Virus record (IMG/VR): IMGVR_UViG_2654587570_000006
Direction: 5' to 3' (one strand)
DNA: 15,728 nucleotides
Source of the DNA: a virus
Lineage: Duplodnaviria > Heunggongvirae > Uroviricota > Caudoviricetes
In this document: positions 6,001 to 9,000 of the stretch, piece by piece
How the letters are laid out: each line of letters starts with the position of its first letter
How positions within the stretch are numbered: position 1 is the stretch's first letter
Program-made: the position numbers

Positions 6001-9000
6001 TATGAATGCAGGGTTTGATGAAAAGATTTTGTTCCCCTCATCAGTTGAAAGCACTGCGGGTTAAGGAGTAACACATGACCACTATTACCAAAGAACGTAT
6101 TGAATTGTTCATTAAATTTTCAGGAGGCGGTACTGTGAGTGAAATTAGCTATCAGGCTTCAATTACCGCTGGCATTCGCATCAAAGGAGAGGAGCATGGA
6201 AATAAAACCAGAGGATGAGTTAAGCAATATCGTTTTATTTCCGGTAAAAGAGGATGACCCTCGTAATCAGGTTAATTTTCTTTATGAGCCATCGGAAAGA
6301 CCATATTGTCATCACGCCTCTGTCCGGGTTGACGAAAAAGAGCGTCAGGTCCGCTGTAAAATCTGCGGTGCAGTTGTGGAACCATTTGACTGGATGCTCT
6401 CTGTGGCGAAAAGAGAAACCAGACTGGCAGATGATGTAAGGCTCTTGCGTCAGGAGGAGCGGGAAAGGCGAAAAAATATAGAAAAGCTAATTCAGATTGA
6501 GCGTAACGCGAAAGCGCGGATACGCAGGGCGACAAAATCCAGAACTGAATAATTAAATTTAGCTCTGTTAAAAATTTAATCCTTAACCGGAGGGATTTCT
6601 GCACCCTCAGAACATCAGGAGGCCGCCCGAAAGGGCGGTAGTTAAATGCGAAAGTTTAAAATAATTATTGAAACGGGAATAGCCGGTGGAGATTTCGAGG
6701 ATGAATTCGAAGTGGATGATGATGCGACGCCTGATGAAATACATGACGAAGCAAAAGATATTTTCTTTAACTACTGCAATTACTCATATCACGAAATAAA
6801 AGACGAAGAGGAAGAACAAAATGGCTGATTTTGGTTCAACTAAATACAACGTCGGTTTTGAAGAATGGCATGAACTGTTAATGGACTATGCAGAGTTACG
6901 TGGTGGCAGTGCTGCTGATGCTGAAGCATGGCGTGATGATTATGAAGCAGGAAAAACTCCGGTCGAAGCATATTGTGATGAGTGGGGCGATGAATGAGCG
7001 AGGTTAATTATCAGGAAGGGCATGAAACGGCGGGGCAAGCAAAAACAGTGGCATGGCGATATCGCTACGTGAAAAAAAGGCGTTACGGACTTTCAGGGGA
7101 AGTAGTGGTCTGGTGACTGGAAATATGTACCGAAAAAAGAGGATTGTAACGACAGGCCGAACTATGAAATTCAGGCCTTATTCACTGCCCCGCCAGTCCC
7201 GGTTACATCAGAAGAACTGGTTAAAGCTGTGCACTTTTATGAACAACTAAAATGCGAAAATCCACCAGCATCCGGAAACCTGATTACAGATTCCCAGATA
7301 AGGCAATGAGCTACCTGGCGCAGAACGGGCTGATAAGTATGGGGAATGTTTTACGATGAATATTTAGACTAAAGAGTTTGTAACGCTATGTAAGTGATTT
7401 TTTCTGGTTTAGATATTTATATGTCCGGCTAAATTGAGGTGTGTTTAAATGTTATTGCACATTGATTGTAGGGGGAATAATGAAAAACGCATTGCAGTTT
7501 TTGTTTGTTGCGTTCTGGTTGTTCGCATCATGTATGCCCATCATCTTCACAGCAAGGTATATGGAAAAAGTTGATGTTTTGATATTAATGTTTGGACATA
7601 TAAATGCCCTTTTTTTAGGGGTGTTCATGGCGGTCATGTGCATTGAATACTGGCGGTAAATACAGCGAACGCCATTGGTTTAGTTGGATATTTACTGTGC
7701 CGGACAAAAACGGTTTGCGGGGAAATCTTAGTTAAGTAGAATGACTGCGGGTGCTTGAGGCTATCTGTCTCAGGCATGAACACCAAAAGGCAGATAGAGA
7801 AAAGCCCCAGTTAACATTACGCGTCCTGCAAGACGCTTAACATTAATCTGAGGCCATATCTATGCGACACATAGAGATTAGCCTCTTACGGACCGAAAGG
7901 TCAAGGAGAAGCAGGCTATGAAGCAGCAAAAGGCGATGTTAATCGCCCTGATCGTCATCTGTTTAACCGTCATAGTGACGGCACTGGTAACGAGGAAAGA
8001 CCTCTGCGAGGTACGAATCCGAACCGGCCAGACGGAGGTCGCTGTCTTCACAGCTTACGAACCTGAGGAGTAAGAGACCAGGCGAGGGGGAAATCCCTCG
8101 CCACCTCTGATGAGTCAGGCATCCTCAACGCACCCGCACTTAACCCGCTTCGGCGGGTTTTGTTTTTTCCTGGCATTCTGGTTTACAATTCGCACGTCAG
8201 CCTGAACACCTGACACCTGCTGCGCCAGTAGAGAAAACAGATGGCGCACAAAACCAAATTTCACAATTCTGATACCGACCTTGCCATCCGGCATGGGCGG
8301 CGTTCACACGCATTTAAAACCGACTGGTACCAACACCCACCATGTACTGAAGAACAGGCCGAATGGCTAATTCATAACTACCGCAGACGCGGATACGAGA
8401 TTAAGAAAGCCCTCAGCCTCGATTATCGTCACTGGATAATCTATGTCAGGCTCCCTTATTCCGAACGCCCACCGCGTCCGTCCCGCACATTCCAGCAACG
8501 CATCTGGAGGTAACGTGCGGGTATTACTTCGACCTGTTCCGGTACCGGAACTTGGGCTGGTGGTGCTAAAACCGGGCCGTGAATCCATGCAGGTATTTCA
8601 TAACCCTCGAGTTCTGGTGGAGCCGGAACCGAAAAGCATGCGCGGTCTGCCGTCCGGAGTCGTTCCTGCTGTTCGCCAGCCGCTGGCGGAGGATAAATCA
8701 TTACTGCCATTTTTCAGCGATGAGCGGGTGATTCGTGCTGCTGGTGGTGCTGGTGCATTGTCTGACTGGCTGTTACGCCACATTAAATCCTGCCAGTGGC
8801 CTCATGGTGACTACCATCACAGTGAAACCGTCATACATCGTTACGGTACCGGCGCGATGGTGTTGTGCTGGCACTGCGACAACCAGCTGCGTAACCAGAC
8901 TTCCGAATCACTCGGGCAGCTTGCTCACCAAAACCTGTCAGCATGGATGATTGATGTCATCCGCCACGCAATGAATGGCACGCAGGAGCGGGAATTATCG

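Follow-up and report, generated by a model that had tools for sequence, protein, structure and literature searches.

The hok/sok/mok locus of plasmid R1 (parB) and the hokW-sokW locus of phages 933W and Sp5 are described type I toxin-antitoxin (TA) systems. Processing of the hok mRNA at its 3' end, cleavage of the RNA duplex by RNase III and toxicity of the Hok protein have been established for both (PMC9841398, PMC8621323). In R1, the mRNA changes from a closed form, in which the element tac (translational activator) pairs with fbi (fold-back inhibitory element) and a Shine-Dalgarno (SD) sequence with ucb, to an open form with tac/ucb and SD/dcb pairing (PMC9841398). The 933W/Sp5 locus was identified by experiment as a type I TA system with a Sok RNA of 71 nt (Takada et al. 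2021, PMC8621323); in Sp5 it requires both RNase III and Hfq and raises phage release after mitomycin C treatment (PMC8621323). HokW and the Hok protein of R1 are reported to share about 44% identity, a comparison between the prophage group and the R1 group (PMC8621323). Here we examined a stretch of 15,728 nucleotides from a virus of the Caudoviricetes (IMG/VR record IMGVR_UViG_2654587570_000006), which we refer to as the window. We assign positions 7714-8168, with a probability of about 0.9, to an intact hok/sok/mok cassette of the prophage hokW/hokD subgroup, lying in the nin-like region of a Qin/lambda-like Escherichia coli prophage. The assignment is carried by sequence identity, family membership and predicted alternative folds. 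The system itself is already known: it is a textbook type I TA system that was annotated in 933W in 1999, was tested in Sp5 in 2021 and is present in most E. coli genomes.

Components of the cassette

The features of the cassette, including the open reading frames (ORFs), the coding sequence (CDS) of the toxin and elements of the 3' untranslated region (UTR), are as follows.

7714-7742, plus strand: putative hok promoter, read by eye and inferred, with a weak -35 element TTTGCG (7714-7719), a 17-nt spacer and the -10 element TAGAAT (7737-7742)
7749-8168, plus strand: full-length hok mRNA of about 420 nt, from tac to the U-tract of the terminator, delimited by the start of the Rfam leader match, a fold with paired ends and the terminator
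7749-7760, plus strand: tac, GGGUGCUUGAGG, predicted to pair with 8123-8135 in the full-length fold
7802-7810, plus strand: ucb, or anti-SD element, AAGCCCCAG, paired in both predicted folds
7850-7853, plus strand: SD of mok, GAGG, 8 nt 5' of the mok ATG, read from the sequence
7855-7876, plus strand: apex of the Sok-target hairpin, hypervariable by column entropy, which surrounds the mok AUG and lies opposite the Sok 5' end
7862-7921, plus strand: mok, 19 codons, MRHIEISLLRTERSRRSRL, with its TGA (7919-7921) overlapping the hok ATG as ATGA, read from the sequence
7881-7887, plus strand: dcb, GCCUCUU, in the full-length fold the predicted partner of the hok SD region (7906-7912)
7903-7908, plus strand: SD of hok, AAGGAG, partly sequestered in the predicted full-length fold; homology with hokD of E. 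coli K-12 starts here
7918-8073, plus strand: hok toxin CDS, 51 amino acids, from ORF calling, Pfam and PHROG
8081-8102, plus strand: stem-loop in the 3' UTR, GGCGAGGGG-GAAA-UCCCUCGCC, nine pairs in both predicted folds
8123-8135, plus strand: fbi, CCUCAACGCACCC, predicted to pair with tac in the full-length fold
8142-8168, plus strand: intrinsic terminator with a 7-bp stem and a UUCG loop (hairpin 8142-8159) followed by a T-run, from a terminator scan
7800-7868, minus strand: predicted Sok antisense RNA with a length of about 65-71 nt and complementarity to the SD and AUG of mok, mapped by alignment from the sokW misc_RNA of 933W
7875-7904, minus strand: putative sok promoter with the -35 element TTGACC (7904-7899), an 18-nt spacer and the -10 element TAATCT (7880-7875), or alternatively GCTAAT (7882-7877), read by eye and from homology

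An earlier reading of this DNA, made from the letters of the sequence without database searches (the sequence-only reading), had described a complete hok/sok-type locus with a Hok ORF at 7918-8073, a leader whose 5' end is nearly complementary to a 3' element, a 19-codon mok ending on the hok ATG and a strong terminator, and had proposed an Rfam search as a check. All of these elements were recovered. The Hok protein matched Pfam PF01848 (HOK_GEF; 1.2e-23, 82.9 bits, cut-off 22) and PHROG 251, 'MokW-like host killing' (2.8e-33), and the Hok models of NCBIfam matched below their curated cut-offs (48.5 bits versus 73). The Rfam family RF01794 ('sok antitoxin') covered the whole leader at 7749-7920 on the plus strand (106.7 bits, gathering score 59, E=7.8e-24, model positions 1-157 of 157). 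Since this match lies on the mRNA-sense strand across the entire leader, it certifies the hok leader, and not the antisense transcript itself.

In order to judge which elements are kept in related loci, we collected at least 120 IMG/VR loci sharing the exact 23-nt anchor 7831-7853 and added phage and genome loci as well as the window, which resulted in 115 loci with a hok start. The mok SD and positions 7831-7853 are invariant in this set by construction, as they formed the search anchor, and the set consists of close relatives, the more distant hok loci (hokA/B/C/E, R1, pnd, srnB) lying outside it. The Hok allele of the window was the most frequent one, occurring in 67 of the 115 loci. The tac sequence was exactly conserved in 113 relatives and fbi in 90 (fbi is also kept in K-12 hokD), and a GTAGAAT sequence was kept upstream in most of them. 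The -10 element of the putative hok promoter, which ends 7 nt before the 5' end of the leader at 7749, is contained in this sequence. The terminator was conserved in K-12, Rac and 640R1.

A sequence search found the cassette in 79 phage records. Because most of the phage matches begin at about 7702-7729 and finish at about 8145-8167, the cassette behaves, as judged from these boundaries, as a discrete mosaic unit, a module of about 440 bp running from promoter to terminator.

Predicted refolding of the hok mRNA

The minimum free energy fold of the predicted mRNA (7749-8168) was -171.9 kcal/mol, with z=-7.4 and none of 100 shuffled sequences equally stable. In this fold, the two ends of the molecule are paired with each other: GGGTGCTTGAGG at 7749-7760 is complementary to CCTCAACGCACCC at 8123-8135 save for one bulged C. 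The ucb positions 7804-7810 pair with the mok SD region at 7848-7854, with GCCCC (7804-7808) opposite GAGG (7850-7853), and UCUU of dcb (7884-7887) covers part of the hok SD (7906-7909). We then folded the segment 7749-8121, that is, the mRNA without its last 47 nt. The tac positions 7749-7756 were now predicted to pair with AAGCCCC at 7802-7808 in ucb, and the mok SD (7850-7854) with GCCUC of dcb (7881-7885). This predicted change of fold upon 3' truncation reproduces the switch described for R1.

Concerning the 3' UTR, the stem-loop at 8081-8102 is likely to be the protective 3' hairpin of the processed mRNA, by analogy with the data on R1 (PMC9841398). As a separate observation, the Rfam model isrK, a Salmonella small RNA (sRNA) of Gifsy prophages that binds Hfq, matched the hairpins of the hok 3' UTR at 8082-8163 on the plus strand with 26 bits against a gathering score of 50 (E=0.0026); this is probably chance or generic hairpin similarity. 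Other sub-threshold Rfam matches from a search of 7300-8400 with a permissive E-value, to two C. elegans snoRNA models and rsmX, were treated as chance.

Comparison with described loci

The window shares about 91% nucleotide identity with hokW/sokW/mokW of phage 933W (AF125520) over positions 7706-8145. The 933W record annotates sokW (as misc_RNA), mokW and hokW, and the leader, the Sok region, the Hok family and the fbi element of the 933W/Sp5 hokW locus are as in the window. On the other hand, the mokW of 933W is a 70-amino acid ORF in frame with hokW, whereas the mok of the window, owing to a net -1 change, has 19 codons and ends on ATGA. The two loci also differ at the apex of the Sok-target hairpin and at the C-terminus of Hok, which is TAYEPEE in the window and VDYESEK in HokW. 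In 933W, the copy is found close to the right end of the phage genome and not in the nin region, and its sequence diverges from that of the window directly after fbi.

With plasmid R1, the window has in common the named elements, the predicted refolding between full-length and truncated mRNA, and the number of mok codons before the hok start, which is 19 in both. The mok of R1 is a 70-codon ORF that overlaps hok out of frame, whereas that of the window stops at the hok start, and the R1 locus is plasmid-borne while that of the window is in a prophage. The mok/hok locus of a Rac-type phage from E. coli 442/2 (MN652886) is 94% identical to the window and lies at the same place in the nin region, upstream of rem, DUF1367, DUF1364 and Q. 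Unlike that of the window, its mok is a 68-amino acid ORF overlapping hok out of frame, as in the R1 arrangement.

A further comparison is that with hokD (relF) in the Qin cryptic prophage of K-12 (NC_000913.3). The hokD CDS is identical to that of the window at the nucleotide level, and its 3' UTR, fbi and terminator are nearly identical. The neighbourhoods are of the same type, with ydfA/B/C-like genes upstream and YdfU/DUF968 downstream. However, in an alignment covering relE-hokD-rem (NC_000913.3, 1643500-1650500), homology with K-12 begins only at the hok SD (window position 7904/7905), directly after relE. K-12 is therefore without tac, ucb, Sok, mok and a promoter of its own. The relBE-hokD arrangement, with a leaderless hok directly after relE, was not found in the window, where a full leader stands in place of relBE. 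This agrees with the sequence-only reading, which had seen a self-contained module rather than a relF-type gene. The alignment indicates that in K-12 all of the sequence upstream of the hok ribosome-binding site was lost to relBE and that the window copy kept it. The window locus is thus of modest use as the apparent intact ancestor form of the truncated K-12 hokD, in the equivalent prophage position.

In phage PhiR42_1 (PV340562.1, about 2020-3408), homology with the window ends at the hok ATG and is followed by genes for a 'mobile element protein' and a transposase; an insertion sequence (IS) appears to have disrupted hok in this phage.

The predicted Sok antisense RNA

The minus strand from 7870 to 7796 was predicted to fold into a short 5' hairpin and a long stem-loop followed by UUUUCUCU (-31.7 kcal/mol, z=-5.2). 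A terminator-like hairpin with a U-tract of this kind fits the predicted Sok RNA of about 65-71 nt. The putative sok promoter is correctly placed for a transcription start near 7868-7870. In sokW, which is 91% identical, mutations in the -10 element inactivated the promoter and antitoxin activity was lost (PMC8621323). The sequence-only reading had proposed a convergent Sok promoter inside the leader; its position and its homology with sokW of 933W/Sp5 agree with this proposal, and a consensus promoter scan, described below, called no site there.

Alleles of the mok leader ORF

The 115 relatives were divided according to the arrangement of mok and hok.

92 of 115 loci: mok of 70 amino acids, in frame with hok (933W mokW type)
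6 of 115 loci: mok of 68 amino acids, out of frame and overlapping hok (Rac 442/2 type; R1 in arrangement)
13 of 115 loci: mok of 19 codons ending on ATGA
4 of 115 loci: in-frame mok with an incomplete hok (an internal stop, or a locus ending within hok)

The 13 short-mok alleles, among them the window and the relative L004, share one sequence from the mok SD to the hok ATG. Compared with 933W, 2 nt of the hairpin loop are missing from this sequence, and one extra T is present before the hok SD. When an 80-nt probe of the segment was compared with complete-genome E. coli records, full-length matches of 100% were present in at least about 610 and at most 777 of them, where 610 is an estimate from evenly spaced output rows and 777 is the number of records with at least 99% identity. 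The sequence-only reading had contrasted the short mok with the long overlapping mok of R1. The idea that the short form is unique to this window was rejected, as it occurs in 13 of the 115 sampled loci and in hundreds of complete E. coli genomes; by these counts the 19-codon mok is a common, fixed natural allele. Taking into account that the mok frame is polymorphic even among close relatives (92, 6 and 13 loci), the Mok peptide cannot be under selection.

Does a mok of this length suffice? In R1, exactly 19 codons of mok lie ahead of the hok start, and Hok translation is abolished by stop codons upstream of that start (PMC9841398). Stop codons placed after it leave hok translation unaffected, and translation of mok past the start of hok is dispensable (PMC9841398). 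Because R1 needs mok translation only as far as the hok initiation region, the short mok should be functional. What the mutagenesis of R1 defined as required (PMC9841398), a mok with its own SD and an ORF reaching the hok initiation region, is present in the window sequence.

The same facts can be turned around, and the locus regarded as a silenced relic. The net -1 change would then uncouple hok from mok and no Hok would be made, while Sok and the leader would persist and possibly regulate other hok copies. A majority of the relatives (92 of 115) do have the 70-amino acid in-frame mok, the short form being in the minority, and the surrounding prophage contains frameshifted pseudogenes. The loss of Hok translation caused by upstream mok stops in R1 would also be in line with a relic, and since the number of hok-like places in E. 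coli genomes has a median of 2 and a maximum of 10, an orphan Sok could act in trans. However, the mok stop of the window is located past the hok SD and shares bases with the hok AUG, in the classic arrangement for termination and reinitiation, and in R1 it is translation up to the hok initiation region that counts (PMC9841398). Moreover, the hok CDS, both SDs, tac, fbi and the terminator are all intact, and hundreds of genomes carry an identical short-mok allele. The Hok protein is that of the most frequent allele, whereas a silenced toxin gene would be expected to decay, as apparently happened in PhiR42_1 with an IS at the hok start. We consider a relic highly improbable.

Returning to an intact cassette, several points weigh against this assignment. 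A consensus sigma-70 promoter scan of 7300-8400 on both strands called no site, for either hok or sok, so that both promoter assignments rest on reading by eye and on homology, without a consensus score. In the case of hok, the promoter escaped the scan because its -35 element matches the consensus at only three of six positions. As tac and fbi are near-invariant among the 115 relatives, with no room for covariation, their long-range pairing is predicted from folding. In the predicted truncated fold the hok SD is unpaired; if this holds, hok may depend less on coupling to mok than it does in R1. Finally, a mok stop that overlaps the hok AUG is a boundary case of the R1 experiments, and the function of this allele is a prediction.

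Variation at the Sok target

Column entropy was calculated over 76 distinct full-length alleles. The mean was 0.84 at positions 7859-7866, compared with 0.2 or less across most of the mRNA, which places the variation at the apex of the Sok-target hairpin. We tentatively raise the possibility, which we hold to be short of probable, that prophage hok/sok cassettes diversify specifically at the Sok-recognition site (7855-7876) and thereby yield many specificity types that do not cross-react, the indels in the loop incidentally shifting mok among three frames. If this were true, several prophage copies could coexist in one cell without protecting each other, and the 19-codon ATGA allele would represent a natural minimal mok in which only the transit of ribosomes to the hok start is under selection. 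Co-resident copies could be compared in three same-genome pairs only; their loops were identical in one pair and different in two. The 19-codon, in-frame and out-of-frame alleles provide a ready comparison set for the role of mok translation past the hok start, and the same set could show whether the hypervariable loop sets the specificity of the antitoxin between co-resident prophages.

Proposed mechanism and biological role

Transcription, 3' processing, translational coupling and toxicity of the window locus are taken here from the R1 model, and we infer the following course. A weak promoter would give rise to a stable hok mRNA of about 420 nt. At full length this mRNA would be silent, with tac and fbi paired, the mok SD held by the anti-SD element ucb and the hok SD by dcb. 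Slow trimming from the 3' end would take off fbi, upon which tac could capture ucb and a hairpin presenting the mok SD and AUG would form. The trimmed mRNA would then have one of two fates. It would either be cut by RNase III after binding the short-lived Sok RNA, a transcript of the minus strand (about 7868 to 7800), or, once Sok was depleted, be translated. In the latter case, ribosomes would traverse the 19 codons of mok through the hok initiation region, halt at the UGA of AUGA and start on hok. The resulting 51-amino acid Hok peptide would depolarise the inner membrane.

By analogy with what has been reported for hokW-sokW of Sp5, the role of the cassette is most likely prophage maintenance, help in lysis at induction, or both. 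Exclusion of other phages is also possible. The sequence-only reading had considered an addiction or abortive-infection function, and such a role is plausible by analogy. As the main role, abortive-infection defence would mean that the shut-off of host transcription by an infecting phage depletes Sok and releases Hok. This would fit with the exclusion of phage T4 by the hok/sok locus of R1 (Pecota and Wood 1996, as cited in PMC10305079) and with the nature of the cassette, an autonomous promoter-to-terminator module that moves between prophage contexts, as is typical of morons and defence genes. Nevertheless, the sole experiment on a prophage copy, that on hokW-sokW of Sp5, points to lysis and phage release after induction (PMC8621323), and the sequence itself does not tell the two roles, defence and lysis, apart. 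We regard defence as the main role as unlikely, though a credible alternative to maintenance or help in lysis.

The adjacent 59-amino acid ORF

A further ORF lies upstream of the cassette.

7480-7659, plus strand: hydrophobic ORF of 59 amino acids, outside the cassette and doubtful as a gene, from ORF calling

The sequence-only reading had suggested that this is a two-helix membrane protein, perhaps a second small toxin, a holin-like protein or an exclusion factor. The ORF and its two hydrophobic segments do exist; a family match and support for a gene were not obtained. Were the protein real, acting with or alongside hok/sok, one could point to the GGGGG run resembling an SD 4 nt before the ATG, to the Kyte-Doolittle means of about 2.1 in the two segments, to the intact state of the ORF in all 21 loci that have the segment, and to some annotation pipelines that predict a protein of 59 or 72 amino acids here, in clusters of 70-119 members. 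However, searches of Pfam, PHROG and NCBIfam gave no family match, so that membership in a holin or small membrane toxin family was not found, and no divergent homologues under purifying selection were seen. PGAP calls no gene at 7480-7659, and two phage records annotate the opposite strand. A search of 5.8 billion proteins recovered only relatives from E. coli and Shigella, which were either at least 88% identical or were frameshifted, truncated or recombination-junction variants sharing the first 27 or so residues. All six substitutions within the ORF among the 21 loci were nonsynonymous. The base composition of the sense strand (37% T, 14% C) favours hydrophobic codons by itself, and an ATG-initiated ORF of at least 59 amino acids arose in 18% of dinucleotide-preserving shuffles of 7360-7748. 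The segment 7400-7700 is, moreover, a separate mosaic block found beside only 21 of about 124 cassettes. A genuine membrane protein is thus improbable, and on the family searches, the substitution pattern and the shuffle frequency we rejected the ORF as a part of the system.

Genomic context and distribution

With an 841-base query (7400-8240), matches of 100% were obtained in four complete E. coli chromosomes; their annotation calls the gene 'type I toxin-antitoxin system toxin HokD' (PGAP hokD). In RefSeq, the annotation of such loci covers only the toxin, Sok and mok being left out. Of 5426 complete E. coli genomes, 4955 had one or more matches to the query, with a median of 2 and a maximum of 10 places per genome. 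We inspected the prophage context in one of the four chromosomes, CFSAN061770. The order there is a LexA-family repressor, Cro, YdaT, replication genes, small nin-type ORFs, hok, DUF968/YdfU, RusA and DUF1133 (Q-type), with a holin later on. The cassette accordingly lies between the replication genes and the DUF968/RusA/Q genes of a lambdoid prophage, which is the nin-like placement that the sequence-only reading had given.

The interval homologous to 6994-7359 is annotated by PGAP as a pseudogene (frameshifted, with an internal stop), and two more frameshifted small ORFs lie upstream of it. The nin-type genes have therefore partly decayed while hok/sok is intact. PGAP labels an ORF of 59 amino acids on the minus strand at 8115-8294 (PHROG 2947) a hypothetical protein, and phage records label it a 'mobile element protein'. 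It is antisense to the hok fbi and terminator and overlaps the next gene on the plus strand. This ORF is probably an artefact of annotation, whose apparent conservation comes from that of the hok 3' UTR.

Further downstream, the window carries two tRNA genes (12166-12238 and 12339-12412) and a full-length match to the sRNA STnc100 (13097-13286, 123.6 bits), all on the plus strand. In the otherwise near-identical prophage of CFSAN061770, an IS3 transposase gene is annotated in the interval corresponding to roughly 12166-13286.

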